Part shown: one piece after another, positions 94 through 47,260 of the stretch | Numbering within the stretch: the stretch's first letter is position 1 | Layout of the letters: each line of letters opens with the position of its first letter | DNA from: Verrucomicrobiia bacterium | Lineage (GTDB): Bacteria > Acidobacteriota > Terriglobia > Terriglobales > Acidobacteriaceae | Length of the DNA: 64,000 nucleotides | Direction of reading: 5' to 3' | NCBI GenBank assembly: GCA_035508215.1 | Contig: DATJNK010000012.1 | Span: forward strand, 32,007 to 96,006 | Program-made: the position numbers and the translations under genes | Notes under the pieces: model-generated | Database searches by the model: none | Told to the model about the DNA's origin: nothing | Seen by the model: only the letters and a program-made list of their open reading frames with translations

Positions 94-1449
94 GTGAGCT
101 CTCCGTCAAGTGCATCGCGAACCTTCCGCGCCATCGATGTCATCCGCCGGAAACGGGACGGCGCCGAGTTGTCCGGTGCCGAAATCGAAGGACTGGTCAA
201 CGCTTACACCAGCGGAGAGATTCCGGACTATCAAGTCTCGGCCTGGCTGATGGCCGTGGTCCTCCGCGGTATGACGCGCGCCGAGACGGCCGCGCTTACC
301 GACGCAATGCTTCACTCGGGCGAAGTGCTTGATCTCTCGTCGTTGATCCCGAGGAAAGTCGACAAGCATTCCACCGGCGGAGTGGGTGACAAGACTTCCC
401 TCGTGCTGGCACCGCTCGCGGCGGCTGCCGGCGTCGTCGTTCCGATGATCAGCGGCCGTGGCCTGGGGCATACGGGAGGAACGCTCGACAAGCTCGAAGC
501 GATTCCTGGGTTCAACGTTAATTTGCCGGTCTCGGAGTTTCGCCGCGTGCTTGGCATCTGCGGCTGCGCCATGATCGGGCAGACGGCGGAGATCGCGCCC
601 GCGGACCGCAAGCTCTATGCGCTCCGCGACGTCACAGGTACGGTCGAGAGCCCGTACTTGATCTGTGCTTCGATCATGAGCAAGAAGCTCGCGGAGGGGA
701 TCGACGCACTCGTGCTCGATGTGAAAACCGGCTCCGGCGCCTTCATGAAGAAGGAAGACGACGCGGCCTTTCTTGCTGAACTCATGGTCGAAACCGGGGA
801 GCGCATGGGCAAGAGGGTGGTTGCGCTGATTACCGACATGGATCAACCGCTTGGCAACATGATCGGCAATGCGCTGGAGGTCGTCGAGGTTGTCGAGATG
901 CTGCGCGGCGGCGGTCCCGGCGATTTGCGTGAGCTCTGTCTTGAACTAGCCGGATGGATGCTGCATCTTGGCGGTGCGTCGAAGTCCGTTGCCGAAGGAC
1001 GAGAGAAGAGCGCGCACTTGATTGCCTCGGGCGCAGCGCTCGAGAGATTCCGGAAAATGATTGAATTGCAGGGCGGAGATCCGCGAGTCATCGAGGACTC
1101 AAAGCGACTGCCCCAGGCGCGGCAAACGGCTGCCATTCGAAGCGCGAGGTCTGGATATGTCGCCGCCATGCAATGCGAACAGATCGGCACGGCCTGCGTC
1201 ATCCTCGGCGGCGGGCGTGAGCGCAAAGAGGATTCGGTCGATGCCGCGGTCGGGATTGTGTTGCACAAAAAAGTGGGCGACCGGGTTGCCACAGGCGAGC
1301 CGCTGGCCACGCTCCACTACAACGACGAAGCTCGGGGCGAACGGGCGCGGAACCTGATCGAAGCTGCCTGCGAGATTGCGGATTCGGCTCCGTCTCTGAA
1401 ACCGCCGCTGATCCATCGAATCATCGGAAAGTTCGCGGAGAACAACTGA
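94..1449 (+). CDS. deoA: thymidine / pyrimidine-nucleoside phosphorylase
   Basis: 451 aa ORF. It has the N-terminal IRRKRDG..LSGAEIEGLV motif plus HSTGGVGDKTSL and SGRGLGHTGGTLDKLE, typical of the thymidine phosphorylase family. GTG start at 94 taken from the ORF track. Confidence 0.9.
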   Translation: MSSPSSASRTFRAIDVIRRKRDGAELSGAEIEGLVNAYTSGEIPDYQVSAWLMAVVLRGMTRAETAALTDAMLHSGEVLDLSSLIPRKVDKHSTGGVGDKTSLVLAPLAAAAGVVVPMISGRGLGHTGGTLDKLEAIPGFNVNLPVSEFRRVLGICGCAMIGQTAEIAPADRKLYALRDVTGTVESPYLICASIMSKKLAEGIDALVLDVKTGSGAFMKKEDDAAFLAELMVETGERMGKRVVALITDMDQPLGNMIGNALEVVEVVEMLRGGGPGDLRELCLELAGWMLHLGGASKSVAEGREKSAHLIASGAALERFRKMIELQGGDPRVIEDSKRLPQARQTAAIRSARSGYVAAMQCEQIGTACVILGGGRERKEDSVDAAVGIVLHKKVGDRVATGEPLATLHYNDEARGERARNLIEAACEIADSAPSLKPPLIHRIIGKFAENN

Positions 1450-1452
1450 CAA

Positions 1453-2682
1453 ATGGGACACTACACAGGAATTCTCGGCCTTCTGACCATGCTGGGCCTG
1501 GCTTACGCGTTTTCGACCAATCGTCGCGCCATTCGTTTGAAGACGGTTTTCTGGGGCCTTTTCCTGCAGATCACCTTTGCCGTCTTTGTGCTGAAGTTCC
1601 CGCTCGGCCGCGACATGTTTCAGAAGATCGGCGATGCGGCCAACAAGATGCTGAGCTATTCGTACGCCGGGTCGGAGTTTGTCTTCGGGGATCTGGGCAA
1701 GCAGACCGCGCATGTCGGGTTTGTTTTTGCCTTCCAGGTGTTGCCGGTCGTGATATTCATCTGCGCGCTGTTTGCCATCCTGTACCACTTTGGCATCATG
1801 CAGTTCATCATTCGCATAGCATCCTGGGCGATGATTCGTTTCATGGGTGCCAGCGGCGCGGAGTCTCTGAACGTCGCCGCCAGCATCTTCATGGGGCAAA
1901 CCGAAGCGCCGGTAACAATTCGTCCGTTTCTGCCGGAGCTGACGCATTCCGAATTGATGACCGTGATGACGAGCGGCATGGCGCACGTCTCGGGCTCAAT
2001 CATGGCCGCCTACTTTGCCTTCGGCGCTGAGCCCCGACACGTGCTGAGCGCTGTCATTATGACCGCACCGGGAACCATTCTCGTTTCGAAGATGCTGGTA
2101 CCGGAGACGGAAGTTCCGAAGACGGCCGGTAAAGTGGTCATGAGCGCGACCGAAGAACAACAAGAGAAGCAGGAGAACCTGCTGGGCGCGATTGCCCGCG
2201 GCACCGGCGACGGCCTGCACATGGCGCTGAACATCGGGGCGATGCTGATCGCGTTTCTGGCCCTGATCGCGCTGCTGGATGGCATTCTCGGCGGGGTTCA
2301 CCGGCACCTCGGATGGTTTCCGTCGAGCCTCGAAGGAATCCTGGGCGTGCTCTTCTCGCCCGTGGCCTGGATCATTGGCATTCCCTGGCATGATTGCCAG
2401 ATCATTGGCAACCTTCTCGGCACGCGAATGGTCCTGAACGAACTCGTCGCATTTTCCATGCTGGGGCCGCAAAGAGCTGTGCTGGCCCCGCGTTCATTCA
2501 CGATTGCGACTTTCGCGTTGTGTGGATTCGCGAATCTCAGTTCGATCGGGATACAGATCGGCGGCATCGGCGCTTTGGCTCCGAACAAGAAGGCGGAACT
2601 GGCGCGGCTCGGGATTCGCGCCATGCTCGCCGGCACGATGGCCAACCTGATGTCGGCTTCGATCGCCGGCATGTTGTTGTAA
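1453..2682 (+). CDS. nupC: NupC/CNT-family concentrative nucleoside transporter
   Basis: 409 aa polytopic membrane protein starting 4 nt after the deoA stop. N-terminal GILGLL...NRRAI..K.V.WGL.LQ and C-terminal FALCGFANLSSIGIQIGG are hallmark NupC motifs. Confidence 0.85.
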   Translation: MGHYTGILGLLTMLGLAYAFSTNRRAIRLKTVFWGLFLQITFAVFVLKFPLGRDMFQKIGDAANKMLSYSYAGSEFVFGDLGKQTAHVGFVFAFQVLPVVIFICALFAILYHFGIMQFIIRIASWAMIRFMGASGAESLNVAASIFMGQTEAPVTIRPFLPELTHSELMTVMTSGMAHVSGSIMAAYFAFGAEPRHVLSAVIMTAPGTILVSKMLVPETEVPKTAGKVVMSATEEQQEKQENLLGAIARGTGDGLHMALNIGAMLIAFLALIALLDGILGGVHRHLGWFPSSLEGILGVLFSPVAWIIGIPWHDCQIIGNLLGTRMVLNELVAFSMLGPQRAVLAPRSFTIATFALCGFANLSSIGIQIGGIGALAPNKKAELARLGIRAMLAGTMANLMSASIAGMLL

Positions 2683-2814
2683 TCTACAAATCGCCCTCTG
2701 ATTCTGAGAGGCGGAAGCGGTCGCATCCTCCCTGGGAAAAGAAGCCCGCAGAAGGCTCGCGATCGGGCGGATGACCGACCAGAACAACGCTGTTCCATTA
2801 CCTACTGTTTCTAC

Positions 2815-3861
2815 TTGAGGACCACACCTGTGAAACGACTCATCATTCTGATCGCGATTCTTGCTTCGCTGGTCTGTGCCGCCCACGCTCAAACCCGCGT
2901 GATCATCGATACCGATCCCGGCATCGACGACGCCATGGCGTTGTTGCTCGCCATCAACTCACCCGAACTGAAAGTCGAGGCCATCACCGTCGTTCCGGGA
3001 AATGTCGAAGGCTGGCAAGGTCTCGAGAATGCCCTGAAGATCGCGTCGCTGGCGGGACGTTGCGACATACCGGTGGCCGCCGGCGCGCAACACCCCCTCA
3101 ATCAGAAACTGATCACCGCGCAATACTGGCATGGCAAGAATGGCCTCGCCGGCGTCGAGTTGCCTGTATCGAAATGCAAGGCCGACGCCCGCTTTGGCCC
3201 GGATCTCATCATCGAAACCGTGCATAAGTACCCACATGAGGTGACCCTGATTCCAATTGGGCCGTTGACGAATATTGCGCTCGCGGTGTCCAAGGATCCA
3301 TCGATCGTGCCCCTGGTGAAGGACGTCGTCATCATGGGCGGGTCAATCTCGGGCGGCAACGTCGATGGCGCTGCGGAGGCCAATATTTATGGCGACCCCG
3401 AAGCGGCGTCGATTGTATTCAATGCCGGATGGATGGTAACGATGATCGGCTCCGATGTTGGCGAGCGCACCCTGATTACACGCAATTATCTGACTGATCT
3501 GCAGGCGCAGCACGGGCCGGAGAGCGATTTCATTGAAAAGCTCGCGGATTTCTATTTGACCCGCTCCGAAAAGAGCGGATACCAGGGAGCCGCGATGTAC
3601 GATCCGCTGGCGGTTGCGACCGTGATCGACCCTACGCTCGTGACGCTGAAAGATATGCACGTCGACGTGGAGACGAAAGGCGAGTTTACGCGGGGCGAGA
3701 CCGTCGCCAATCGCATGGGATCGGACGAAAACAATGTGTTGCATGGCGATCACTATGAGATCGAGGGAGTGATTCCACTGACGCCGAACGCGCGCGTGTG
3801 CCTGGCCTCAGACGCGGCACGATTCCTGAAACTCTTTATTGGCCGCATTAAAGGAAAATAG
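2815..3861 (+). CDS. inosine-uridine-preferring nucleoside hydrolase family protein, signal-peptide-bearing (periplasmic/secreted)
   Basis: Canonical IUNH aspartate cluster IIDTDPGIDDAMALLLA follows a hydrophobic leader ending LVCAAHAQ. The start could be TTG 2815 or GTG 2830. Confidence 0.85.
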   Translation: MRTTPVKRLIILIAILASLVCAAHAQTRVIIDTDPGIDDAMALLLAINSPELKVEAITVVPGNVEGWQGLENALKIASLAGRCDIPVAAGAQHPLNQKLITAQYWHGKNGLAGVELPVSKCKADARFGPDLIIETVHKYPHEVTLIPIGPLTNIALAVSKDPSIVPLVKDVVIMGGSISGGNVDGAAEANIYGDPEAASIVFNAGWMVTMIGSDVGERTLITRNYLTDLQAQHGPESDFIEKLADFYLTRSEKSGYQGAAMYDPLAVATVIDPTLVTLKDMHVDVETKGEFTRGETVANRMGSDENNVLHGDHYEIEGVIPLTPNARVCLASDAARFLKLFIGRIKGK

Positions 3862-3874
3862 GTCGACCTGGGTT

Positions 3875-4852
3875 TTATTGGCTGGCGTGAGCGACCAGCA
3901 AAATCGCTAGGCCGTAGAACACGAACATTAAGGTCAAATAGGTCTTTGCCCGCGAACCGGAACCGGCGAACTCCTTCCATGCCAGCAATCCCCACAGCGC
4001 GGCCACCATCGGCGCCGACTGGCCAATCGCGTAGGAGATCGCGTAACTGGTGCTCTTTCCCGCGACGACGTTGAAGACCGTCCCCACCCCCCAAACCGCT
4101 CCGCCAAACAGGCCCAAGAGATGCCCCGAGGGCGGCCCGCCAAAAAATCCACTGAGACGGACCGGTTCGCCAACCAGCGGCTTCTTCATGAAGTAGAGAT
4201 TCCAGATAAAGCACGACAGCAGCGCACCCAGCGTGAGGAACACGACGGAGCTGTACGGAGTCAACGGATTTCCCCGGGTTGCGCCATAGGCGACAAAAGG
4301 ATTCCACAACCCCATCAATACTCCGGAGATGACGCAGATGACGATGCTTCTTCGGGAAATGGAGCGTCCGGCGCTGACCAGGCTTCCATACGCTTTACCG
4401 TCAAGGACGACCGCGATCACGGCGCAGATCACCCCGATCGCGAGGAAAAGGGCGTTTCCCTTGGGTTGCAGCGCGTAGCTCAGCACGACTCCGACAACGA
4501 GAGCAATTCCGATGGAGACGGGAAAGGCGACGGCCAGGCCGGCCATGTCAATTGCGGCAACAAGCAACAGATTGGCGAGATTGAAGATCGCGCCGCCAAC
4601 CATAGTCGACACGATGTTTGAGGTGTCGGACGACCGCACGTTATTCAGAAAGCTGGAGGCGTCGTGTCCACTGCTTCCCATCGTAAGAGCCAGCAAAAGA
4701 GAAATCAGGAAAATGCCGATGGCGTAGTCCCAGTAAAAAAGCTCGAAACGATAATTCTTGACGCCCTTGTAGGTATTGGCCCACGATCCCCAGCAGATCG
4801 CGCTGGTGATCATCATCAGCAAGGCTACGGTCAGGTTCGGCGGTGTGAACAT
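3875..4852 (-). CDS. DMT-superfamily transporter (GRP glucose/ribose-porter or ureide-permease-like)
   Basis: About 10 hydrophobic segments. The motifs ICWGSWANTYKG and GAVWGVGTVFN...YAIGQSAPMVAALWG resemble GlcU/RbsU and ureide-permease-type DMT carriers. I moved the start to ATG 4852 (MFTPPNL), because the 4927 start leaves only 26 bp to the divergent gene. Confidence 0.6.
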   Translation of the reverse strand: MFTPPNLTVALLMMITSAICWGSWANTYKGVKNYRFELFYWDYAIGIFLISLLLALTMGSSGHDASSFLNNVRSSDTSNIVSTMVGGAIFNLANLLLVAAIDMAGLAVAFPVSIGIALVVGVVLSYALQPKGNALFLAIGVICAVIAVVLDGKAYGSLVSAGRSISRRSIVICVISGVLMGLWNPFVAYGATRGNPLTPYSSVVFLTLGALLSCFIWNLYFMKKPLVGEPVRLSGFFGGPPSGHLLGLFGGAVWGVGTVFNVVAGKSTSYAISYAIGQSAPMVAALWGLLAWKEFAGSGSRAKTYLTLMFVFYGLAILLVAHASQ

Positions 4853-4953
4853 TCGGTCTCTCCCCAGAAAACGTGTAACTCTACTCTTCTTTCCGGAAGG
4901 GAACAAGGTGCTATCGAGCAGGCGCAAGCGCTTTCTCTGCTATCCTTACGCGC

Positions 4954-5916
4954 GTGTCACGCACATTCCTGATCGATACGGATACGGCTTCGGATGACGC
5001 AGTCGCGTTGATCATGGCCCTGCGCTGCCCCGATGTTCGGGTGGCCGCGATTACGGTAGTGGCCGGGAACGTCGATGTCCATCAGGCCACACGAAATGCG
5101 CTTTACACCGCCGAGCTTTGCGGGTCCGATGTTCGCGTGTTCTCCGGCGCGGATCGCCCGCTGTTGCGCTCTTATGAAAACGCGACCTGGTTTCACGGGC
5201 GCGACGGGCTTGGGGACCATAACTATCCGGCGCCCAGACGACGTCCAGAGAAATTGAATGCCGTGGATGCCATCATCGAAACAGTCGACGCTAACCGTGG
5301 GCTGGTGCTGGTTACGCTGGGTCCGCTGACGAACGTTGCCCTGGCAGTGTCGAAGGATCCTTCCATTACAGCCAAAGTCGGCCGCTGCGTTGTGATGGGA
5401 GGCAACCCGTGCTGTGAAGGGAACGTGACGCCCGCGGCCGAATACAACATTTGGGTCGACCCAGACGCGGCGCGAATTGTCATGCACAGCGGTTTGCCGA
5501 TCGAGTTGGTCGGCTGGCATCTATGCCGGGGAGACGCGGTTCTCAGCCCGAGTGACATCAGTTTTGTCGAAGATGTTCGCACTCCGCTTGCGCACTTCGC
5601 GATCGAGTGCAACAGCCACGCCCGGGCGGCATACAGGATTCAGACGGGGGAAGATGGAATCTGCCTGCCGGATCCGGTAGCGATGAGTCTTGCGCTCGAC
5701 CCATCGGTGGGCGTCAACTGGAGCGATCACTACGTGGAAGTAGAGACGCAGAGCGAATTAGCGCGCGGCATGACGGTTGTCGATCGCCTGAATGTCGCCG
5801 CGGACGAGAGGAACCGCGCTGTGTGGGCCCCCGCTCTGCAGGCGCGGAAAGCAAACGTCTGCTGGAACATCGACACGACCAGGTGGAAAAGCGCGCTTTA
5901 TAAGGCCCTTCAGTAG
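4954..5916 (+). CDS. nucleoside hydrolase (IUNH family), cytoplasmic
   Basis: N-terminal FLIDTDTASDDAVALIMAL aspartate motif directly after the start, with no signal peptide. 320 aa, typical Rih/IunH length. Confidence 0.85.
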   Translation: MSRTFLIDTDTASDDAVALIMALRCPDVRVAAITVVAGNVDVHQATRNALYTAELCGSDVRVFSGADRPLLRSYENATWFHGRDGLGDHNYPAPRRRPEKLNAVDAIIETVDANRGLVLVTLGPLTNVALAVSKDPSITAKVGRCVVMGGNPCCEGNVTPAAEYNIWVDPDAARIVMHSGLPIELVGWHLCRGDAVLSPSDISFVEDVRTPLAHFAIECNSHARAAYRIQTGEDGICLPDPVAMSLALDPSVGVNWSDHYVEVETQSELARGMTVVDRLNVAADERNRAVWAPALQARKANVCWNIDTTRWKSALYKALQ

Positions 5917-5930
5917 GATCTCGCTATCCT

Positions 5931-7328
5931 TTATCCTTTCGGCTGGGCATAAGTCGAACGCTTCAGGAACTCCCCCTGGCCCGCCCTGCCGAAAAACTTG
6001 CCGCCTTCGACGACGACCCTGCCGCGCGAAAGCACGACCTCGGGCATCCCCGTGACTTCAATGCCTTCGAACATCGAATAATCGACCCGCATATGATGAG
6101 TCTTGGCGCTGATCGTGTGCCGCTGCTTCGGATTGAAGATCACCAGGTCCGCATCACTGCCAACCGCAATCGTCCCCTTGCGCGGATAAAGGCCGAACAA
6201 TTTGGCGGGTGTGGTTGACACAAGTTCGACGAATCGATTCGCGTTGAACCGGCCTCCGGCCACACCTCCCGAATAGATCAGACTCATCCGATGCTCGACG
6301 CCGGGGCCGCCGTTCGGAATTTTGGTGAAGTCGTCGCGTCCAAGTTCCTTCTGCTCTTTGAAACAGAAGGGACAATGATCAGTGGAGACCACCTGCAGGT
6401 GGTCGCGTTTCAGGCCATTCCAAAGTTTTTCCTGGTGCCACTTTTCCCGCAGCGGCGGCGTGAAGACATACTTCGCTCCCTCGAAGCCGGGGGCGTCGAA
6501 GTTCTCCAGGGAAAGATAAAGATACTGAGGGCACGTCTCGGCGTAGACGGGAAGTCCGCGATCGCGGGCTTCGCGCACCTTTTCGAGAGCGTCGTTGCAG
6601 CTCAAATGCACGATATAAATCGGCGCTCCCGCCATCTCCGCCAGGGCGATTGCTCGCGCCGTCGCCTCGGCTTCGGCGGTGGTTGGACGGGTGAGCGCGT
6701 GGTATTTTGGCGCTTTCTTTCCTTCGGCGAGGGCTTGCTGCACGATCACGTCGATCGCCGAGCCATTCTCGGCGTGCATGCAAACCAAGCCTCCATTCCT
6801 GGAGGTCGTTTGCAGCGCTTTGAAGATGCTGCCGTCGTCAAGCATGAACACTCCGGGGTAGGCCATGAAGAGTTTGAAACTGGTCACGCCTTCGTGGACC
6901 AAGTCATTCATCTCGGCGAGTTGCCCTCCGGAGATGTCCGTCACGATGCAGTGGAAAGCGTAGTCGCAGACTGCCTTCGACGCAGCTTTAGTCATCCAAG
7001 TGTCGAAGGCTTGCCGCAGAGCCTGGCCTTTGTACTGGATGGCGAAGTCGATCAGGGTCGTAGTTCCACCGAAGGCGGCCGCACGCGTACCGGTCTCAAA
7101 ATCGTCGGCGCTGGTTGTGCCGCCGAATGGCATGTCGAGGTGAGTATGAACGTCGATGCCTCCCGGGAGAACCAGTTTGTCCGAGGCGTCGAGAAGGTTG
7201 CCGGTGTTCTGCGCGGGAAGATCGCGTCCGATGGCGACAACCTTGCCGTTTGTGATCGCAACGTCGGCTGTGTATGTGTCGGTTGCTGTCACTAGCGAAC
7301 CGTTTCTGATGATGGTGTCAAAGGTCAT
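5931..7328 (-). CDS. hydA: dihydropyrimidinase / D-hydantoinase
   Basis: 465 aa cyclic amidohydrolase. It has GGIDVHTHLDMPFGGT (HxH metal site), the GTRAAAFGGTTT..DFA motif and a downstream VSTDHCPF motif, typical of dihydropyrimidinases. Confidence 0.88.
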   Translation of the reverse strand: MTFDTIIRNGSLVTATDTYTADVAITNGKVVAIGRDLPAQNTGNLLDASDKLVLPGGIDVHTHLDMPFGGTTSADDFETGTRAAAFGGTTTLIDFAIQYKGQALRQAFDTWMTKAASKAVCDYAFHCIVTDISGGQLAEMNDLVHEGVTSFKLFMAYPGVFMLDDGSIFKALQTTSRNGGLVCMHAENGSAIDVIVQQALAEGKKAPKYHALTRPTTAEAEATARAIALAEMAGAPIYIVHLSCNDALEKVREARDRGLPVYAETCPQYLYLSLENFDAPGFEGAKYVFTPPLREKWHQEKLWNGLKRDHLQVVSTDHCPFCFKEQKELGRDDFTKIPNGGPGVEHRMSLIYSGGVAGGRFNANRFVELVSTTPAKLFGLYPRKGTIAVGSDADLVIFNPKQRHTISAKTHHMRVDYSMFEGIEVTGMPEVVLSRGRVVVEGGKFFGRAGQGEFLKRSTYAQPKG

Positions 7329-7450
7329 GATGCCCTCGGCTGTAGACCTGGCAACGCCAGTCGGGATTGGAGAAAGAATTCTATGCTAAACTGCCGCCCT
7401 TTAGTTCTTCTCTGCCGGTTCCGGCATCTTTCACGGGAAGGGGACCCGCC

Positions 7451-8455
7451 ATGCAATTCGGTATTACTTTGAAGCCTGATATTTCTGTCGAGCGCATCGT
7501 CGGATTAACTCGGCAGGCCGAGTCTGCTGGATTCACCTATGGCTGGGTCTTTGATTCGCATGTTCTTTGGATGGAGCCGTATCCGCTCCTGACCCTGATG
7601 GCCGCCAACACCAAGGCCATGCGTCTGGGCACGTGTGTGACGAATCCCGCGACGCGTGATTTGAGTGTGACGGCAAGCCTGTTTGCCACGCTGAATCTGA
7701 TCTCCGGCGACCGAATGGAACTCGGCATCGGACGAGGTGATAGCTCGCGCCGCGTGCTCGGCAAGAAGCCTGTGAGCTGGTCGCAACTGGAAACCGCGGT
7801 GCAGGAGTTTCGTGCGCTCACTTCAGGCGCAGAAGTCCATCATGACGGGCAAACGACCAGGCTGAGTTGGGCAAAGAATTCTCCGCGAGTCTGGATCGCC
7901 GGTTATGGGCCCAAAGTGTTGCACATGGCGGGGCGTGTCGCAGACGGCATCATTCTGCAGTTCGCGGACCCGGCGCTCATTGAGTGGTGCCTGAGTTTCG
8001 TCCAGGAAGGCGCTCGAGCCGCAGGACGCGATCCGAAGCGGATTGAAGTGATGTCGGCCGCGCCGGTCTGGGTGTCAGATGATCTGCAGGTTGCTCGCGA
8101 ACGCGTCCGCTGGTTTCCGGCCCTGGTGTCGAACCACGTAGTGGACCTGATCCGGCAGTACAAGCCGGAAGATCTTCCTCCCGCGCTTACGTCTTATGTT
8201 CAGGATCGTGGCCACTACGATTATCAGCACCACTGCGAGGTGGGGAGCGATAATTCGGAATTCGTCTCCGATGAGGTTATCGACCGTTTCTGCCTGATTG
8301 GACCGGCGGAAGCGCACCAAAAGAAACTGCGCCAGTTGCGCGACGTCGGAGTCACGCAATTCAACATCTATCTGATGTGCGGCGACGAGGAGCAGACCCT
8401 CGACATCTACCAGCAAAGAGTCCTCCCCGCCATTTTGCAATCAAAGAAGTCGTAA
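7451..8455 (+). CDS. luciferase-like (LLM) flavin/F420-dependent oxidoreductase, Mer-like subgroup
   Basis: MQFGITLKP...GWVFDSHVLW...LGTCVTNPATRD...GIGRGDSSRRVLG resembles methylene-H4MPT-reductase-like F420-dependent LLM proteins. I chose the start at ATG 7451, which has a GGAAGGGG Shine-Dalgarno-like element upstream, over the 7367 ORF start. Confidence 0.75.
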   Translation: MQFGITLKPDISVERIVGLTRQAESAGFTYGWVFDSHVLWMEPYPLLTLMAANTKAMRLGTCVTNPATRDLSVTASLFATLNLISGDRMELGIGRGDSSRRVLGKKPVSWSQLETAVQEFRALTSGAEVHHDGQTTRLSWAKNSPRVWIAGYGPKVLHMAGRVADGIILQFADPALIEWCLSFVQEGARAAGRDPKRIEVMSAAPVWVSDDLQVARERVRWFPALVSNHVVDLIRQYKPEDLPPALTSYVQDRGHYDYQHHCEVGSDNSEFVSDEVIDRFCLIGPAEAHQKKLRQLRDVGVTQFNIYLMCGDEEQTLDIYQQRVLPAILQSKKS

Positions 8456-8462
8456 GCGCGAT

Positions 8463-9902
8463 CTAGGCTGCCGCAGGTGGAGTGAAAGCGTCCCTTCGAC
8501 CGGAAGCCATCATTACGTAATACGCGACGAACGAAACCGCGAATCCCACGAACCACGAATAATCGTAGAGCGGGCGCACCGAAGGCACCGCCAGTCCGGC
8601 CAGCGCTGCGCCGGCGCCCAGCCCAAGCGCAAGGATCGCGCGCCAGTTGAATCCCCGTGAGTATTCGTAGGCGCCATTTCGAAGATACAGATCGTCGACC
8701 ACCAACACCCGCCGTCGAATGAGGAAGTAATCGCAGATCATGATTCCTGCCACCGGCCCGAGAAACGCCGCGTAGCCGCCCAGCCAGCCGAGGATGAATG
8801 TTCTGTAGTTCGCCAGCAGTTTCCACGGCATGAGCGCAATTCCCATGAAGCAGGTGAGGATTCCGCCCGCGCGAAAGCTGATGCGACGAGGCCAAAGATT
8901 CGAGAAGTCATTTGCCGGAGAGACGACATTGGCTCCGATGTTGACATTCAGCGTGGCCAGCAAGATGGCGATCAGCGAAACTACGACTGCTGCCGGCGAG
9001 TGAAAGCGGCTCAGCAATTGCACCGGATCCCATATCGCCTGGCCATAGATCACAACGGTGGCTGAAGTGACCAGGATTCCAACCAATGCATAAAGCGTCA
9101 TGGTGGTCGGAAGGGCCAGCGCCTGCCCAATCACTTGCTCCTTCTGGTTCCGGGCGAAGCGCGTGAAGTCTGGAATATTCAAGGAAACGGTGGCCCAGAA
9201 TCCGACAGTGCCATTCAGCGCCGGGATGAGGAATTTCAGGAAATCAGAGAAGCTCTTGAAGCGCGAGGGCGCAGAGAGCATCGGGCCAAAACCACCCGCA
9301 GCGTGATACGCCCAACCGAGCAGAAGCAATCCGACGCCCAGCAGAACCGGTGCGCTGATTCCTTGCAGGATCCGAATGTACTCAATTCCCTTCACGACCA
9401 CCGCCAGGTTGATCAGCCAGAAAATCAGGAAGCAGATTGCCGGGCCGTAGGAAACATCTTTCCAGCCGGGGACGAGCGTCGCGAGAAGTGTGCTGATTGC
9501 TTCACCACCAATCCAGGCTTGAATCCCGAACCAGCCGCAGGCAACCAGGGCGCGAAGCACGGCAGCGACATTCGCTCCCAGCACGCCAAACGATGCGCGC
9601 GCCAGAACCGGGAACGGAACCCCGTATTTGGCGCCGGGATGCGAGTTCAGGAGCATGGGAACCAGCACGATGACGTTGCCGAGAAAAATCGTCGTGACCG
9701 CCTGACGCCAGTTCATCCCACCCTGAATCAGACTCGCCGCCAGCATGTAGGTGAGGATATTCACCGACATGGAAATCCACAAAGCCGCGAAGTTGTACGT
9801 TCCCCAGTGACGTTGCGCGGGGGTTGCCGGCGCCAGGTCGTGGTTATAGAGCGGGCTTGCCTGGATCTTTGCCGCGAGTGCGATGGGGTTTGATTCGCGC
9901 AT
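8463..9902 (-). CDS. NCS1-family nucleobase:cation symporter (cytosine/uracil/allantoin/hydantoin permease type)
   Basis: 479 aa with about 12 TM segments. N-terminal NHDLAP....R.WG.YNFAALWISMSVNI is the typical NCS1 signature. Confidence 0.85.
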   Translation of the reverse strand: MRESNPIALAAKIQASPLYNHDLAPATPAQRHWGTYNFAALWISMSVNILTYMLAASLIQGGMNWRQAVTTIFLGNVIVLVPMLLNSHPGAKYGVPFPVLARASFGVLGANVAAVLRALVACGWFGIQAWIGGEAISTLLATLVPGWKDVSYGPAICFLIFWLINLAVVVKGIEYIRILQGISAPVLLGVGLLLLGWAYHAAGGFGPMLSAPSRFKSFSDFLKFLIPALNGTVGFWATVSLNIPDFTRFARNQKEQVIGQALALPTTMTLYALVGILVTSATVVIYGQAIWDPVQLLSRFHSPAAVVVSLIAILLATLNVNIGANVVSPANDFSNLWPRRISFRAGGILTCFMGIALMPWKLLANYRTFILGWLGGYAAFLGPVAGIMICDYFLIRRRVLVVDDLYLRNGAYEYSRGFNWRAILALGLGAGAALAGLAVPSVRPLYDYSWFVGFAVSFVAYYVMMASGRRDAFTPPAAA

Positions 9903-9949
9903 GCTTCCTGGTGAGTGGGACGATTTGCCGGATTCCGAACGTCAGGTCT

Positions 9950-10843
9950 TCAGTCGGCAGCGATCGAACTTGCGCTCTGCATGGTCAGGGGGCCATAAGT
10001 CTCGGGACGACGATCGCGAAAGAATTGCCATACCCTTCGCACCTCAGTGATCATCTCGAGGTCGAGATCGGCAACTACGACTTCGTCTTTGTCGCGGCTG
10101 GCTTGGGCAATGATCTTTCCGCGAGGATTGCAGAAATAGCTCTTGCCGTAGAATTCGCCGATGCTCCACGGCTTCTCGGTCCCCACGCGATTGATCGCCC
10201 CCACAAAATAGCCGTTAGCGACCGCATGCGCGGGCTGCTCGAGCTCCCACAGATATTCGGAGAGGCCAGCCACCGTCGCCGACGGATTAAAGACAATCTC
10301 AGCGCCGTTCAGTCCGAGGATGCGCGCGCCTTCAGGAAAATGGCGATCGTAACAGATGTAGACTCCGACCCGAGCGTACTTGGTTTCAAACACGGGATAT
10401 CCCAGATCGCCCGGGGTGAAGTAGAACTTCTCCCAGAAGCCGGGATGGCAATGCGGAATGTGATGCTTACGATATTTTCCGAGGTAGCGGCCATCTGCAT
10501 CGATGACCGCGGCAGTATTGAAATATACGCCGGGCATCTGCTCTTCATACACCGGAACCACAATCACCATGTGATGCTTGGCAGCAACCTTCTGCATAAG
10601 TCGAACGGTCGGCCCGTCCGGGACCCGCTCGGTGAGTTCATACCAGCGCGCGTTTTGTTCGGCGCAAAAATATGGGCCATAGAAAAGCTCCTGGAGGCAC
10701 AAGATCTGCGTCTTCTTTTTAGCTGCTTGTTGGATCAGCTTCATGTGCTTGTCGAGCATGGCCTTTCGAATCTGCGCGAGCGGACGCTCGGTGCTGAGCG
10801 CATTGCTGGCTTGAATCAAGGCACAGCGGACGATACGGGGCAT
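9950..10843 (-). CDS. beta-ureidopropionase-like carbon-nitrogen hydrolase (nitrilase superfamily)
   Basis: 297 aa. It carries the CN-hydrolase catalytic E-K-C context (LCLQELF..., YRKHHIP, VYICYDRHFPE) and the C-terminal FFRDRRPETY typical of eukaryote-type beta-alanine synthases. Strong GGAGGA RBS upstream. Confidence 0.8.
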   Translation of the reverse strand: MPRIVRCALIQASNALSTERPLAQIRKAMLDKHMKLIQQAAKKKTQILCLQELFYGPYFCAEQNARWYELTERVPDGPTVRLMQKVAAKHHMVIVVPVYEEQMPGVYFNTAAVIDADGRYLGKYRKHHIPHCHPGFWEKFYFTPGDLGYPVFETKYARVGVYICYDRHFPEGARILGLNGAEIVFNPSATVAGLSEYLWELEQPAHAVANGYFVGAINRVGTEKPWSIGEFYGKSYFCNPRGKIIAQASRDKDEVVVADLDLEMITEVRRVWQFFRDRRPETYGPLTMQSASSIAAD

Positions 10844-10956
10844 GACTCCTCCAGACTCGACTTTCGAGGAACGAAACTATAGCAGAAATTGTGGCGCAGA
10901 AAGCGGGCAGGCGCGAGATTCGAAGCCGGGATTGCTCGCGTTACTCGACATTGACA

Positions 10957-10985
10957 TTGACATGCCCTAAGACGCTGGCTACACT
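10957..10985 (+). promoter_or_regulatory. sigma-70-type promoter candidate for rbsK
   Basis: TTGACA (10957-10962), a 17-nt spacer, then TACACT (10980-10985), about 30 nt upstream of the rbsK ATG. A second overlapping TTGACA lies 6 nt upstream (ATTGACATTGACAT). Confidence 0.4.
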
Positions 10986-11017
10986 CGCCCTTCTTTGAAC
11001 TTCAGCCTCCGGAGCTT

Positions 11018-11947
11018 ATGGCAAAACGCCCGCGAATCGTGGTAGTCGGCAGCGCGAACATCGATCTCACGACATTTACCAATCAATTTCCGAAGCCGGG
11101 CGAAACCCTGTTTGCGGAGAGATTCGACCTGGGTTTCGGCGGGAAAGGCGCGAATCAGGCGGTGGCCGCCAGGCTGTGCGGCGCGGAGGTTTTCATGGTC
11201 GCGCGCGTGGGCAGCGATCTCTTCGGCCCCGCGACAATTGAGAACTTTCGCAAACAAGGGATCGACCCGACACACGTAAAACAGGTCGCAGGACTGTCGA
11301 GCGGTGTGGCTCCGATCTTTGTCGAGTCCAACGGACAGAATCGGATCCTGGTGGTGAAAGGCGCCAACGATGCATTGAAACCCTCAGACGTGGATGCGGC
11401 CGCCGAGACTCTGAAGACTGCCGACTGCATCGTGCTGCAGTTCGAAATCCCGCTCGAGACGGTTTACTACACTGTCGATTTTGCCCGGCGCAATAATATC
11501 CGCTGTATTGTGAACCCGGCGCCGGCGCAACCGGTCGATCTTTCAGCGCTCCGGGATCTGGATTACTTTGTTCCCAACGAGAGCGAGGCGGAGGCCATCG
11601 CGGGCGCGCCCGTGAAGAATCTGGACGACGCCAGGAAATGCGCCGAACGAATGCTGAAGGCGGGAATTCGCAGAGTAATTATCACTCTCGGGGCGAAGGG
11701 GTGCCTCCTGGCCGGCAGCGAGGGATGCGACCACATTCCACCGTTCAAAGTGGAGAGTGTCGACAGCACCGGGGCGGGAGACGCATTCATTGGCAGCTTT
11801 GCCGTCTTTCTCGGCGAAGGAGCCCCGGAAAAAGAAGCATTGCGGCTCGCCAATCTCTACGCTGCTTTATCCACCACAGGGGTTGGAACGCAGAAATCGT
11901 TCTACGACCGTGCCCGCTTCGACGCCCAGTGGGCTGCTCGCCGCTGA
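11018..11947 (+). CDS. rbsK: ribokinase
   Basis: VVVGSANIDL, GGKGANQAVAA and the C-terminal DSTGAGDAFIGSFA (PfkB signature 2) are present. 309 aa. Confidence 0.9.
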   Translation: MAKRPRIVVVGSANIDLTTFTNQFPKPGETLFAERFDLGFGGKGANQAVAARLCGAEVFMVARVGSDLFGPATIENFRKQGIDPTHVKQVAGLSSGVAPIFVESNGQNRILVVKGANDALKPSDVDAAAETLKTADCIVLQFEIPLETVYYTVDFARRNNIRCIVNPAPAQPVDLSALRDLDYFVPNESEAEAIAGAPVKNLDDARKCAERMLKAGIRRVIITLGAKGCLLAGSEGCDHIPPFKVESVDSTGAGDAFIGSFAVFLGEGAPEKEALRLANLYAALSTTGVGTQKSFYDRARFDAQWAARR

Positions 11948-12115
11948 GTAGGAACCGTTGTTTTCGCAGAACATAACTTGTGTTTCGCGACCGTTTCGTC
12001 GTGCTCTGCCAGCCTGCCGGTCGCAGATTCGCTGAAAGAACGAAGCCTTCGACATTTCTGCTGATTGCGATTCAGAAAATGACGACGAACGGCGCTGTTG
12101 TCTCGCCGAAAAGTC

Positions 12116-12144
12116 TTGACTTACCGACGAGCGGAGATTTATAA
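12116..12144 (+). promoter_or_regulatory. sigma-70-type promoter candidate for the TonB-dependent receptor
   Basis: TTGACT (12116-12121), a 17-nt spacer, then TTATAA (12139-12144), about 90 nt upstream of ATG 12233. Confidence 0.4.
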
Positions 12145-12232
12145 GCCGAGTCTGCGGTCGGGGGCTCTCCCAGGTTCAATCTGCGGGAGAATACTCTCTT
12201 TTTGGGGCAGGCCGCCGAAAGGGGTTCAGTCG

Positions 12233-15200
12233 ATGCCAAGCACGAAGATGCTTGTCGCAGTGGTGGTGTCAGCGCTGGTTTTTGTGTGCGGTCCCTTTGC
12301 GTTGGGTCAGGCGACCGGCAGCTTTTCGGGCACGGTGTCGGACAACTCGGGAGCTGTCATCGCCGGCGCGAAAGTGACAGTCACTGCTCAGGCGACGAAT
12401 ATCTCGCGCCAGGCGCCGACCGATGATAGCGGGCACTACATTGTGCCGCTGCTTGGCGTTGGCGAATACACGGTCCGAGTCGAGGCCGCAGGCTTCAAAC
12501 CGGGTGAGTCGAAAGACATTCGCCTGCAAATCGACGAACACCGCGAGCTGGACTTCAAGCTGGTTCCCGCCTCAGTGACAACCAATGTTGAAGTGAGCGC
12601 AACCGAAGTAGCGGTCGAAACGTCCACTCCAACGCTCGGTCAAGTCATTACTGCTGAAGAAGTGTCCGAACTGCCGCTGAACGGGCGAAATTTCGTACAA
12701 CTGGCGACCCTTACCCCCGGCACCACGGCCTCCACGAGTCCGGTGAGTTTCTTCACGAGCGCGGCGAGCAGCGAGGCTGCCACGCGTGGTTCCTTTTCGC
12801 TTTCGGTGGGTGGTTCGCGAGAACAGGAAACCGACTGGCTCCTCGATGGCAACGACAATAACCAACTCGATGAAGGCGGCATCGCCATCTTCTCGTCTAT
12901 CGACGACATCCAGGAGTTCAAGGTTCTCACCTACAACTATTCTGCAGAATTTGGCGAGCGCGCCGGCCCGACCGTGCTGGTGACAACCAAGTCGGGATCG
13001 AATCAGTTTCACGGATCGGTGTTCGAGTTCTTCCGCAACACCAAGCTCGACGCCCGCAGTTACTTCGCGAGTTCGGTTGAGAAATTCAACTTAAACCAGT
13101 TTGGGGGGTCTCTCGGCGGTCCGATCAAGAAGGACAAGACATTTTTCTTTGTAGATTATCAAGCGAAAATGCAGCGGCACGGGATACCATTCACCGGCTT
13201 CGTTCCTACGACCGCGATGTATACACCGGACGCAAATGGCAATTACGACTTCAGCGGCACCGCCACTGGGAGGCAGCTGAATGACCCGTTCTCCGGTTCA
13301 CCTTTCCAGTGCCTGCCGGGCACCTCGACTTCGGAACCCGTCTTGGCAGATGGGAGTCAGCCGACAGGTCAGAATTGTAACGTTATCCCGGGCGCGCTCG
13401 CGAGCCCGATCGGCCAGCAGATTCTGCAACTTTATCCGGCCCCGAACGTGAGCGGAGCCGGCTATAACTACGTTAACGAGCCGGTAAGAAAGCTGAATGA
13501 GGGGACATTTGACGTTCGGCTGGACCACTCCTTCTCGAACAAAGACTCCGCCTTTGCGCGCTTCAGCTACGATCAGGCGACGAACTTCGTCCCCGGCGGC
13601 TCACCGACGTGGGCCGAAGTCAACGCGTTTGGCAGCAATCAGCATATCGAGAATCATGGCCGCAACCTGGCAATTTCGGAAACCCACATCTTTTCCTCCA
13701 GCACCATCAACCAGGCGAGCGTTGGTTTCAATCGCATCTTCAACCACATTCTTTCCTTCGGCACAGACGGCAGCTGCAAAGCGGCGCTGATCGGCATTCC
13801 GGGTTCAGATCTGGGAGCGGCGTGCGATGGGATCACAGGCTACCCAGCCAGCCTCAATCAGTCCAGCAAGGATTGCATCAGTTGTGGCATGACGTCCTTC
13901 CTGATGTCGAACTACATGTCGGTGGGCGATCGCGGCTATTCTCCCTACCAGGGCGGCACCAACGTCTATTCGATTTCTGACACGCTCGACTTGATTCGCG
14001 GGAAACATAATCTGCGCGTCGGCGCCGTCTATCGCGCTAACGAAATGAACATCCGGAACAACGCCTTCCAGGACGGGTTCGCGGTTGAGAACGCAATGTG
14101 GACGGGCGATGATGCAGCCGATCTGCTGCTGGGAGCGTGGGGTGTATTCGCCGCGCACGACCAGACGTTCTTGGGCGGGACGGTTGGCCGTCGCTGGAAG
14201 CTGTTTCGCCCATTTGTGCAAGACGATTGGCGTGTAACCAACAACCTTACGGTGAACATCGGCGTGGCGTGGGCGCTGGCAACACCGGAAACCGAAGTTG
14301 GACACCGCCAGGCGAATTTCGATATCCAGACCCTGAAGTGGTATGTCCCGAAGGGAAGTCCGACGTTAGACACCTGCACCGTCTGCATTGCCAGTGACGC
14401 ACGAGCTGGAATTCAGCTGGACAAGACAGCGTTCGAGCCGCGCATCGGGTTGTCCTGGAAACCGATGGGCAGCGACAAGACTGCGATTCGTGCCGGCTAC
14501 GCCATCTATCACGATTCTGCCTGGAATCAAGGCGGACAAGGACTCTGGCAGAACCCGCCTTACTATGCCGAAGTCGATCCGTGCGCCTTCTGCTTCTCGT
14601 ACGGAAGCGCGTTCGGAGCGCTCGGAGGGGGTTTCCTGTTGGCACCGGATACCCCATCTGCTCTCAATGTTCCAGGTGGCGCCATCTACGACGCCCCGGT
14701 CAATCCGGCGGACTACAGCGGAACCATCCAATCGATGAACCGGAATTTCAAGCAGGGCATGGTGCAACAGTACAACCTGAACGTGGAACACCAACTCCCT
14801 GGCAACGTTGTGCTCACGGCAGGTTATGCCGGCTCGAAGAGCACGCACATTCTGGTCGGCCAGTCGAACGAGAACCTCAATGAACCGAGCGCCTGCCCGG
14901 GCGAGCCGAATGAGACCGCGGGCTACACCGTCGGCTGTGGCTTTGGGAATTTTCCTTATGCGTTGGCTTTTCAGAGCGTGAGCGCGAACAACAGCGTTGG
15001 GACCGCGCGATATGATTCCCTGCAGGTGAAAGCCGAGACCAAGAGTTCGCGGCACGGGCTTTACGCTCTGCTTGGCTACACCTGGTCGCGCACGTTTGAC
15101 TCCGGCATGCCCGATGGTCTGGGCACCAATCCCGGTGCAATCTACTATCCGCTGCCCGGGTACAAGAAGCTTGACTGGGGATTGTCGCAGCTCAACCTGA

Positions 15201-15817
15201 ATGACAGCTTCACGGCGAGCGTTCTTTATGACTTGCCCTTCGGCAAGGGGAAACACTTCGGCAGCAACTGGAACGGAGCCACCAATACTGTCTTCGGCAA
15301 CTGGCAACTGGATCTGATCGAACGCGCAACCTCGGGATTTCCCCTCTTTGTGGTTGACAGCGCGGATGAGTCCGGGACCTTTTTCTCGTACAACGGCGGC
15401 ACCTATCAACGCCCGAACCAAGTCGGGGATCCAAACCGGCCCGGCCCCGTGGCCGGGAATCCTGGGTGCACTGCGCCGTCGCAGATTCACACGATACAGA
15501 ACTGGTTCAATCCTTGCGCTTTCATGCAGGCGCCGACCGGAGAGCTAGGCACGGCAGCTCGAGCGCCAGTGTATGGTCCGCGTTTCGTAAACACGGATTT
15601 CTCGATCATCAAGGACTTTCCGTTCCCCTGGCGTGAAGGCATGAACCTGCAGTTCCGAGCTGAATTCTTCAATCTGTTTAACCATCCGCAGTTCTTCCTG
15701 CAAGGAGCCGGAGGCAGTGGTGAGCAGGATATCAACGCGTCGGCGACGTTTGGGGTAATCAACGCGACGGTGAATAATCCCCGGCTTATTCAGTTTGCAT
15801 TGAAACTGAGGTTCTGA
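12233..15817 (+). CDS. TonB-dependent receptor with N-terminal carboxypeptidase-regulatory-like domain
   Basis: Signal peptide MPSTKMLVAVVVSALVFVCGPFALGQA. CarboxypepD_reg-like segment GSFSGTVSDNSGAVIAGAKVTV...DDSGHYIVP..GEYTVRVEAAGF. Plug region (LNGRNFVQLATLTPG) and a long barrel ending ...FALKLRF with terminal aromatic residue. Start set at ATG 12233 rather than the 12098 ORF start. Confidence 0.85.
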   Translation: MPSTKMLVAVVVSALVFVCGPFALGQATGSFSGTVSDNSGAVIAGAKVTVTAQATNISRQAPTDDSGHYIVPLLGVGEYTVRVEAAGFKPGESKDIRLQIDEHRELDFKLVPASVTTNVEVSATEVAVETSTPTLGQVITAEEVSELPLNGRNFVQLATLTPGTTASTSPVSFFTSAASSEAATRGSFSLSVGGSREQETDWLLDGNDNNQLDEGGIAIFSSIDDIQEFKVLTYNYSAEFGERAGPTVLVTTKSGSNQFHGSVFEFFRNTKLDARSYFASSVEKFNLNQFGGSLGGPIKKDKTFFFVDYQAKMQRHGIPFTGFVPTTAMYTPDANGNYDFSGTATGRQLNDPFSGSPFQCLPGTSTSEPVLADGSQPTGQNCNVIPGALASPIGQQILQLYPAPNVSGAGYNYVNEPVRKLNEGTFDVRLDHSFSNKDSAFARFSYDQATNFVPGGSPTWAEVNAFGSNQHIENHGRNLAISETHIFSSSTINQASVGFNRIFNHILSFGTDGSCKAALIGIPGSDLGAACDGITGYPASLNQSSKDCISCGMTSFLMSNYMSVGDRGYSPYQGGTNVYSISDTLDLIRGKHNLRVGAVYRANEMNIRNNAFQDGFAVENAMWTGDDAADLLLGAWGVFAAHDQTFLGGTVGRRWKLFRPFVQDDWRVTNNLTVNIGVAWALATPETEVGHRQANFDIQTLKWYVPKGSPTLDTCTVCIASDARAGIQLDKTAFEPRIGLSWKPMGSDKTAIRAGYAIYHDSAWNQGGQGLWQNPPYYAEVDPCAFCFSYGSAFGALGGGFLLAPDTPSALNVPGGAIYDAPVNPADYSGTIQSMNRNFKQGMVQQYNLNVEHQLPGNVVLTAGYAGSKSTHILVGQSNENLNEPSACPGEPNETAGYTVGCGFGNFPYALAFQSVSANNSVGTARYDSLQVKAETKSSRHGLYALLGYTWSRTFDSGMPDGLGTNPGAIYYPLPGYKKLDWGLSQLNLNDSFTASVLYDLPFGKGKHFGSNWNGATNTVFGNWQLDLIERATSGFPLFVVDSADESGTFFSYNGGTYQRPNQVGDPNRPGPVAGNPGCTAPSQIHTIQNWFNPCAFMQAPTGELGTAARAPVYGPRFVNTDFSIIKDFPFPWREGMNLQFRAEFFNLFNHPQFFLQGAGGSGEQDINASATFGVINATVNNPRLIQFALKLRF

Positions 15818-15846
15818 CAGACTCTGAAATGTATACGGGAAAATCG

Positions 15847-15884
15847 GGGCAGACTGGAGAGTCTCCGGTCTGCCCTTTGCTTTT
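15847..15884 (+). terminator. Rho-independent terminator after the TonB-dependent receptor gene
   Basis: GGGCAGACTGGAGA-g-TCTCCgGTCTGCCC hairpin followed by TTTGCTTTT, 30 nt after the stop codon. Confidence 0.7.
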
Positions 15885-15914
15885 CGAAGAGTCGGCGAAT
15901 CTTTAGGAGAAACC

Positions 15915-17015: not shown

Positions 17016-17033
17016 GATCCAGGGACTCGTCTT

Positions 17034-26485: not shown

Positions 26486-26573
26486 GCCAGCGGGGTAATG
26501 AGAAGAGCGCCTATCGGCACTGAGGATTCGATCACAAGGCTGCTGCATTCGTGAAGCATTGAGATTTGGAAAC

Positions 26574-47055: not shown

Positions 47056-47260
47056 AGGTTTGCACATCCCCCTTTGTCTATTTGGTGATCGACCGCTTGG
47101 CAGGACAAGGCCTGTCTTACCCAGATAAGACAATCCAGGCAAAAACCTTTCAGTTCTCCAATCAGGATTTTCGGGAAGCAGAAACGGACAGAATCGTGGA
47201 CTCTGACGGAAGCCGATTGCGAGCGAATGCCTACCCTTTGGCCGAACTGAGGCCTATGCT

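Follow-up and report, generated by a model that had tools for sequence, protein, structure and literature searches.

A luciferase-like F420-type oxidoreductase of family TIGR03842 is a candidate uracil/thymine reductase in bacterial pyrimidine-catabolism clusters that lack dihydropyrimidine dehydrogenase

We analyzed a 64,000-nucleotide stretch of bacterial DNA (contig DATJNK010000012.1, positions 32,007 to 96,006; hereafter the window) in which a cluster for reductive pyrimidine degradation, at window positions 5931-10843, includes a gene for a luciferase-like (LLM) oxidoreductase (7451-8455, plus strand). The product of this gene is probably a uracil/thymine reductase that uses F420H2, carries no Fe-S cluster, and stands in for the non-homologous dihydropyrimidine dehydrogenase (PydA) at step 1 of the pathway. 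The evidence comes from its membership of family TIGR03842, its Mer relatives, an AlphaFold2 model, and conserved synteny with genes of pyrimidine catabolism.

The LLM gene is flanked by genes whose identities are well supported. A dihydropyrimidinase (PydB, step 2) is encoded at 5931-7328 on the minus strand (TIGR02033, 635.6 bits, cutoff 393). On the same strand follow an NCS1 nucleobase:cation symporter at 8463-9902 (TIGR00800, 398 bits, cutoff 353), presumed to take up uracil, thymine, or a dihydropyrimidine, and a nitrilase-family beta-ureidopropionase (PydC, step 3) at 9950-10843 (PF00795, 2.1e-66). The best PDB relatives of the latter are Drosophila and human beta-ureidopropionases (2vhh, 8.8e-64; 8pt4, 9.9e-60; 6ftq, 1.1e-59); N-carbamoylputrescine amidase ranks below these and D-carbamoylases far below (~1e-29). 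The window enzyme has the E-K-C motif context; it matches no curated equivalog model, and its score on the aguB model is under the cutoff. A sequence-only reading of this DNA had placed these four genes at the same coordinates and strands and had named steps 2 and 3 and the NCS1 permease, all of which TIGR02033, the PDB relatives, and TIGR00800 bear out. The 122 bp between the divergent dihydropyrimidinase and LLM genes (7329-7450) are presumed, from the sequence, to be a shared control region. They hold a single weak sigma-70-like match on the minus strand, within shuffle expectation, and when the cluster was scanned for promoters and terminators, no match exceeded that expectation.

No canonical step-1 enzyme was found in the cluster, where the sequence-only reading had already noted its absence, or in the 64-kb window and ~8.5 kb further upstream. 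E. coli PreT and PreA gave nothing better than E = 0.05 in the window by tblastn, and Pfam and NCBIfam scans of its large open reading frames (ORFs), up to ~58.3 kb, revealed no DHODH-like protein or Fe-S flavoprotein. The LLM protein is the only oxidoreductase encoded between 94 and 18128. It is therefore the candidate for step 1, since this island supplies steps 2 and 3, a base permease, and base-releasing enzymes and has no other oxidoreductase.

The LLM protein belongs to TIGR03842 (415.6 bits, cutoff 295.45, E = 1.3e-124), with a match that spans positions 1-329 of 329. PF00296 (luciferase-like, 1.1e-56) is its sole Pfam domain. Twenty-five NCBIfam families match it at E <= 0.001; the strong matches are all F420-type LLM families, and FMN-type families reach it only at E > 1e-11. 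The mechanically called ORF begins at a TTG codon at 7367. An ATG at 7451 sits after a purine-rich stretch and gives a 334-aa product, which is recorded exactly as protein HUA14255.1; this supports the ATG as the correct start, as the sequence-only reading had it. The motifs VTNPATRD and GIGRGDS reported there are both present.

Mer enzymes are the closest solved relatives by sequence (E ~1e-33). The AlphaFold2 model (pLDDT 82.8, pTM 0.85) and the PF00296 match place the protein in the luciferase-like (beta/alpha)8 barrel fold of the F420 branch. In a Foldseek search with the model, ranks 1-17 were all F420-dependent LLM enzymes (Mer, FGD2, FGD1, and Adf), and the first FMN enzyme appeared at rank 18. 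The TIGR03842 score, the Mer relatives, and these Foldseek ranks agree with the earlier assignment of the protein to a Mer-like F420 branch. NCBI gives TIGR03842 (F420_CPS_4043) the name "LLM class F420-dependent oxidoreductase" and the type hypothetical equivalog, with GO:0008150 as its only annotation.

We aligned 74 family members with Mer from M. jannaschii and took residue roles from PMC11094777. The Mer segment Val62-Thr-Asn-Pro, which bears the non-prolyl cis-peptide that acts as a backstop for F420 (PMC11094777), corresponds to Val63-Thr-Asn-Pro in the window protein; Val is invariant (74/74), and Thr, Asn, and Pro are each kept in 71-72 of the 74. Mer residue 178, or position C, whose carboxamide influences the Km for F420 (PMC11094777), aligns with Gln170 in the 75-sequence alignment, and 69 of the 74 members have Gln there. 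Mer Asp96, which touches the pyrimidine ring of the pterin (PMC11094777), aligns with Asp97 and is Asp in 71 of 74. The catalytic acid Glu6, which protonates the methylene-pterin in Mer (PMC11094777), is replaced by Thr6 in the window protein and is acidic in none of the 74 members (54 T, 8 V, 6 C, 2 A, 1 Q, and 1 N). Because VTNP, position C, and Asp96 are conserved and Glu6 is never acidic, the family, judged by this alignment, keeps the features of the F420 site and has lost the residue specific to methylene-pterin activation. We also considered whether the protein is itself a Mer, and rejected this: it scores 134.8 bits against a cutoff of 348.7 for TIGR03555 and 158.6 against 276 for NF002619, and Glu6 is lost.

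The neighborhood of the gene was compared among related loci. The window protein was aligned with nine diverse representatives, each of them above the TIGR03842 cutoff, and a scan of GTDB species representatives with this alignment retrieved at least 596 relatives. The best 80 of these, with LLM homologs 54-87% identical, come from Terriglobia, Acidiferrales, Blastocatellia, several Chloroflexota classes, Dormibacterota, and Eremiobacterota. Neighbors were counted by tblastn with the window proteins within 10 kb of the LLM gene. A dihydropyrimidinase gene was present in 64 of the 80 loci, often less than 150 bp away, a beta-ureidopropionase gene in 56, and an NCS1 permease gene in 34. Recurrence in 64 of 80 related loci puts the pairing of LLM and dihydropyrimidinase genes far beyond chance. 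Contigs were short at many of the loci without pyd neighbors. Flanks of 5 kb or more on both sides were available for 42 loci, and 38 of these had a pyd gene. PreT/PreA homologs were found in none of the 80 loci (E <= 1e-8).

Gene order around the pair varies. In Terriglobales (28 loci), the LLM and dihydropyrimidinase genes point away from each other; in Acidiferrales, Chloroflexota, Dormibacterota, and Eremiobacterota (33 loci), they run in the same direction, mostly with short gaps. Clustering of neighboring ORFs showed recurrent partners in Chloroflexota, namely a CoA-acylating (methyl)malonate-semialdehyde dehydrogenase (TIGR01722, 732 bits), a class-III aminotransferase, and an ABC transporter. 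CofE (F420-0:glutamate ligase) is encoded ~1.5-2 kb from the LLM gene in four Chloroflexota loci (L059, L061, L071, and L078), and a class-III aminotransferase lies near it in L059, L061, and L078. Loci L059 and L078 have no dihydropyrimidinase or beta-ureidopropionase gene within 10 kb, yet both carry CofE and the aminotransferase beside the LLM gene. In L046, L054, and the Leisingera locus L087, a Zn-dependent carbamoylase (TIGR01879 type) takes the place of the nitrilase at step 3, while LLM and dihydropyrimidinase are retained. This is a non-orthologous displacement within one module.

More distant family members extend the pattern. In Acidimicrobiia (43-44% identity; the complete genome of Aquihabitans sp. 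G128, and Ilumatobacteraceae), an operon encodes CN_hydrolase, dihydropyrimidinase, malonate-semialdehyde dehydrogenase, and the LLM protein, with an NMT1-type ABC transporter and a class-III aminotransferase nearby. The aldehyde dehydrogenase scores 700 bits on TIGR01722, the CoA-acylating (methyl)malonate-semialdehyde dehydrogenase model. Steps 2-5 are thus all assigned to other genes, and only step 1 is left open. On two Streptomyces replicons (46-47%), genes for beta-ureidopropionase and an aminotransferase come first, then that for dihydropyrimidinase, with the LLM gene directly behind it. On plasmids of Leisingera caerulea and Paracoccus alcaliphilus (40-43%), the LLM gene is the terminal gene of a cofG-cofH-cofD-cofC-cofE-npdG-LLM operon. 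The Leisingera operon diverges from pntA, pntB, an AptA-type omega-aminotransferase gene, a Zn carbamoylase gene (TIGR01879), hydA, and, next to hydA, an NCS1 gene (loci L087 and L092, plasmid NZ_CP081074.1, record positions 155760-171227), and the island reads as a self-contained module for F420-driven pyrimidine catabolism. NpdG, an NADPH-dependent F420 reductase, and PntAB would provide reducing power, in keeping with a reductase for which F420H2 is the electron donor; the arrangement in these Rhodobacterales thus supports both the F420 cofactor and the reductive direction. Culturable carriers include Streptomyces rimosus, Leisingera, P. alcaliphilus, and Aquihabitans. A more remote LLM protein on Rhodococcus sp. 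USK10 plasmid NZ_CP076047.1 (L093; 36% identity), with CofG/CofH genes ~8 kb off and no pyd genes nearby, was placed outside the family. It probably represents another F420 LLM subfamily and shows where the association ends.

Close relatives within Terriglobia make up many of the 80 loci, so one might read the adjacency as inherited synteny or chance without functional meaning. This is hardly credible, given that the adjacency recurs in six phyla, at 40-87% identity and in three gene orders, and outlasts the exchange of the step-3 enzyme. Survival of the link through rearrangement and gene replacement supports a functional connection, and conservation of the adjacency in other genomes, on which the sequence-only reading had staked its proposal, held across the six phyla and several gene-order rearrangements.

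The same clusters bear on whether the LLM protein might serve this pathway at another step, for instance by converting malonic semialdehyde to 3-hydroxypropionate as a PydE/RutE-like enzyme, or in a side reaction, while a PydA encoded elsewhere reduces the ring. F420-dependent LLM enzymes do include alcohol and sugar dehydrogenases (Adf and FGD), and the Terriglobales island has no nearby gene for a beta-alanine aminotransferase or malonate-semialdehyde dehydrogenase, which leaves its downstream steps unassigned; both observations would suit such a role. We nevertheless regard it as unlikely. The tightest and most conserved partner of the LLM gene encodes dihydropyrimidinase, not an aminotransferase. 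Because the Acidimicrobiia and Chloroflexota clusters already hold a CoA-acylating malonate-semialdehyde dehydrogenase, a second semialdehyde enzyme would be redundant there, and step 1 would still be empty. The lack of PreT/PreA in all 80 loci also counts against such a role, whereas described bacterial Pyd clusters have PydA near PydB (PMC7332683).

A change of substrate was weighed as well, with the LLM protein acting on another cyclic amide or ureide (a precursor of a 5-substituted hydantoin, a modified pyrimidine, or a purine-derived ring) in a hydantoin-type utilization cluster. D-hydantoinase and dihydropyrimidinase belong to the same family, TIGR02033 being named for both, NCS1 transporters include hydantoin and allantoin permeases, and a related idea has been put forward for a purine-derived substrate in Chloroflexota (PMC12507026). 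The gene content around the LLM gene makes this improbable, a shade more so than a role at another step. Around the cluster lie genes for thymidine phosphorylase, cytidine deaminase, NupC, nucleoside hydrolases, ribokinase, and DeoC, which are suppliers of uracil and thymine. The cluster's amidase is nearer to beta-ureidopropionases than to D-carbamoylases. Other phyla add a beta-alanine-type aminotransferase and a (methyl)malonate-semialdehyde dehydrogenase, which are pyrimidine-specific downstream steps.

RutA is likewise luciferase-like and acts on uracil, and the sequence-only reading had offered a hybrid oxidative route, with the LLM protein as a RutA-like, FMN-dependent pyrimidine monooxygenase, as its alternative. 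This reading did not survive and is very improbable. In BLASTP, the match to E. coli RutA spanned 58 residues at E = 0.054, TIGR03842 and RutA are separate families, and the RutA model is not among the 25 NCBIfam families matched. No homolog of RutB, RutC, RutD, RutE, or the flavin reductase RutF was detected in the window; in a tblastn search for RutB-F, the best match was RutD, at E = 0.006 over 80 aa in the region of an MFS transporter ORF, and it is not credible. A ring-opening oxygenase would also render dihydropyrimidinase superfluous, and relatives of the LLM gene sit in operons with F420 biosynthesis genes and npdG. To our knowledge, F420 does not support oxygenase chemistry. It is an obligate hydride carrier (reviewed in PMC8498797).

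Weak RutA-like matches (~27% identity) were seen in related loci at L059 16150-16761, L078 13900-14511, L072 414-1133, and L061 14311-14856. They mark a second, distinct luciferase-like paralog near the TIGR03842 gene in several Chloroflexota loci.

We infer the substrate of the LLM protein, the direction of its reaction, and both the use and the source of F420H2 in this organism. In the proposed scheme, thymidine phosphorylase and four nucleoside hydrolases would cleave imported nucleosides to uracil and thymine. The LLM protein would then move a hydride from F420H2 to the C5=C6 bond of uracil or thymine to give the 5,6-dihydropyrimidine, dihydropyrimidinase would open its ring, and the nitrilase-type beta-ureidopropionase would yield beta-alanine (or beta-aminoisobutyrate), NH3, and CO2. 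In Rhodobacterales, PntAB would make NADPH, NpdG would make F420H2 from it, and the LLM protein would consume the F420H2. At about -340 mV, F420 has slightly more reducing power than NADPH.

Several observations weigh against assigning step 1 to the LLM protein. In NCBI's typing, TIGR03842 is still a hypothetical equivalog, and for the donor of the C5 proton there are only candidates among the family's invariants (Asp35, His37, Asp97, Tyr152, and Gln170). Four loci with full flanks have no pyd genes near the LLM gene (L023, L043, L059, and L078), and the Paracoccus plasmid has no dihydropyrimidinase gene within 12 kb of it. The 80 loci are phylogenetically non-independent, ~38 of them being Terriglobia. 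Genes for F420 biosynthesis, Fno, and FGD are absent from the 64-kb window and ~8.5 kb upstream: tblastn with CofC, CofD, CofE, CofG, CofH, and Fno queries from Leisingera and Paracoccus found none in the window (best E = 0.04), in loci L001-L004, or in the upstream stretch L091. A canonical PydA may also be encoded elsewhere in this genome. F420 genes have been reported in some Acidobacteria (PMC8498797).

An ABC transporter ATPase encoded at 22435-23226 (minus strand) was considered as a sign of F420 uptake and set aside, as the 'putative F420-0 ABC transporter ATP-binding protein' model is only its second-best match, at 135.8 bits against a cutoff of 372.

The LLM protein can be set beside several known systems. 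PydA (NADPH), PreT-PreA (NADH), and clostridial PydAc (ferredoxin) catalyze the reaction proposed for it at the same place in the pathway, and PydA-type genes adjoin pydB, pydC, and a base permease gene (cluster types in PMC7332683), the position that the LLM gene occupies here. In PydA-type enzymes, a DHODH-like FMN protein carries several 4Fe-4S clusters and, in some cases, FAD, whereas the LLM protein consists of one luciferase-like TIM barrel of 334 aa, lacks Fe-S motifs, and has no homology to them. Unlike these enzymes, it would take its hydride directly from a diffusible deazaflavin. Mer (PDB 8qpl, 8qpm, 1z69, and 1f07), its closest solved relative by sequence, resembles it in fold (TM ~0.8) and shares the VTNP cis-peptide segment, the position-C carboxamide, and the Asp96 equivalent. 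Mer differs in having Glu6 where the LLM protein has Thr and in its context, which is C1 metabolism and not pyrimidine catabolism, and the LLM protein falls far below the Mer model cutoffs.

The chemistry has an indirect precedent in secondary metabolism: mureidomycins need a putative F420/FMN oxidoreductase for their uracil ring to be reduced at C5-C6 (PMC10714638). SSGG-03002/NpsU, likened to the LLM protein by description only, reduces the uracil ring in mureidomycin/napsamycin biosynthesis, but it acts on a uridyl-peptide antibiotic, and its activity in vitro was not obtained. As a second indirect precedent, in Chloroflexota clusters for reductive uric acid degradation, a putative F420 'luciferase family' LLM protein fills the slot of a PydA-like/YgfK reductase beside a cyclic amidohydrolase (PMC12507026). 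That case, too, is likened by description only; it is a bioinformatic suggestion and involves a purine-derived substrate and the partner SsnA (PMC12507026). RutA shares the luciferase-like superfamily and a reaction on uracil, but it depends on FMN and O2, opens the ring, and needs RutB-F; the LLM protein is not significantly similar to it, and its partners are missing from the window.

The pyrimidine cluster lies within an island for nucleoside use (94-18128). Upstream, on the plus strand, are genes for a thymidine/pyrimidine-nucleoside phosphorylase that frees thymine and uracil from nucleosides (94-1449; NF004490, 563 bits, cutoff 269; TIGR02644, 561.8 bits, cutoff 409; Pfam Glycos_transf_3 and PYNP_C) and a NupC-type nucleoside transporter (1453-2682; Pfam Nucleos_tra2_N, Gate, and Nucleos_tra2_C; TIGR00804 at 436.6 bits, slightly below its cutoff of 442). 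They are followed by an inosine-uridine-type nucleoside hydrolase gene (2830-3861, plus strand; PF01156, 3.7e-90) whose start is taken from the called gene in L001 and whose product has a signal-peptide-like N-terminus (VKRLIILIAILASLVCAAHAQ). A 325-aa ureide-permease-like membrane transporter (3875-4852, minus strand; PF07168, 5e-20; a called gene in L001) is conserved in 14 related loci. A second nucleoside hydrolase, without a signal peptide, is encoded at 5014-5916 on the plus strand (PF01156, 1.8e-86; a called gene in L001). Downstream of the cluster, all on the plus strand, are genes for a ribokinase that uses ribose freed by the nucleoside hydrolases (11018-11947; TIGR02152, 341.8 bits, cutoff 299.65), a 1194-aa TonB-dependent-receptor-like outer-membrane protein with a signal peptide, a CarboxypepD_reg domain, and a beta-barrel (12233-15817; PF25183, 3.4e-200; PF13620), and a third and a fourth nucleoside hydrolase, both with signal-peptide-like N-termini (15915-17015, PF01156, 4e-53; 17055-18128, PF01156, 2.8e-57, a called gene in L002). 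Just upstream of the window, the source contigs encode cytidine deaminase, DeoC, two aldehyde dehydrogenases, and a phosphoribosyltransferase. This gene content therefore points to nucleoside uptake and release of free uracil, thymine, and ribose. With signal-peptide-like N-termini on three of the four nucleoside hydrolases and on the TonB-dependent-type protein, the island looks, from its sequence, like a polysaccharide-utilization-locus-style system that would import nucleosides or nucleic-acid debris and cleave them in the periplasm.

The two aldehyde dehydrogenase genes (L091 2919-4424, 501 aa; L091 4558-6942, 794 aa and unusually long) adjoin DeoC. Both products fall below the malonate-semialdehyde dehydrogenase cutoff (~292 versus 448 bits), and they may oxidize the acetaldehyde formed by deoxyribose-phosphate aldolase.

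The window, from a Terriglobales-like soil acidobacterium, matches metagenome-assembled genomes (MAGs) of Terriglobales and Sulfotelmatobacter in gene order and at 80-94% protein identity. The record HUA14255.1 is labeled 'Verrucomicrobiae bacterium' and locus L005 'Candidatus Binatus sp.'. Because both share this order and identity with a dozen Terriglobales/Sulfotelmatobacter MAGs, these are probably binning or taxonomy labels and not true cross-phylum occurrences.

The remaining large ORFs covered by the Pfam and NCBIfam scans are housekeeping and unrelated genes only. Among them, a 798-aa ORF at 23317-25713 (plus strand) with LptC-like and LptA/LptD_N-like regions is an apparent LptC-LptA fusion, followed by genes for LptB (25726-26454) and sigma-54 (26559-28397). 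At 44896-47142 (minus strand), a 748-aa product ends in a C-terminal Peptidase_S74 domain (endosialidase chaperone), as found in phage tail fibers and some surface proteins.

The finding is one of non-orthologous replacement within a known pathway, and the link to pyrimidines is new for TIGR03842. In the searchable literature, subscription-only papers lying outside it, we found no prior link of F420 or TIGR03842 to dihydropyrimidinase or pyrimidine catabolism. The characterized first-step enzymes are all homologous Fe-S flavoproteins that differ only in their donor, which is NADPH, NADH, or ferredoxin (PMC7332683). If the proposed role is correct, the LLM protein would be a fourth solution for step 1 of the most widespread route of pyrimidine-ring degradation, single-subunit, iron-free, and driven by F420H2, and it would add to the biocatalysts available for asymmetric reduction of the pyrimidine C=C bond. 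Pathway reconstructions in which Terriglobia, Chloroflexota, and Acidimicrobiia figure as incapable of pyrimidine catabolism for want of pydA would then need correction.

More broadly, a 2021 review of F420 asked why Proteobacteria and Chloroflexi make this cofactor and observed that studies of F420-dependent enzymes had not gone beyond Actinobacteria (PMC8498797). On balance, we lean toward the view that TIGR03842 is an unrecognized, Fe-S-free class of F420H2-dependent dihydropyrimidine dehydrogenase in at least six bacterial phyla and that pyrimidine catabolism is a principal physiological reason for F420 in non-actinobacterial lineages such as Leisingera and Paracoccus. If so, the result would assign a substrate and a physiological function to a large family, represented by those 596 or more stretches in GTDB species representatives and by many thousands of similar metagenome proteins, and it bears on why Proteobacteria and Chloroflexota synthesize F420.

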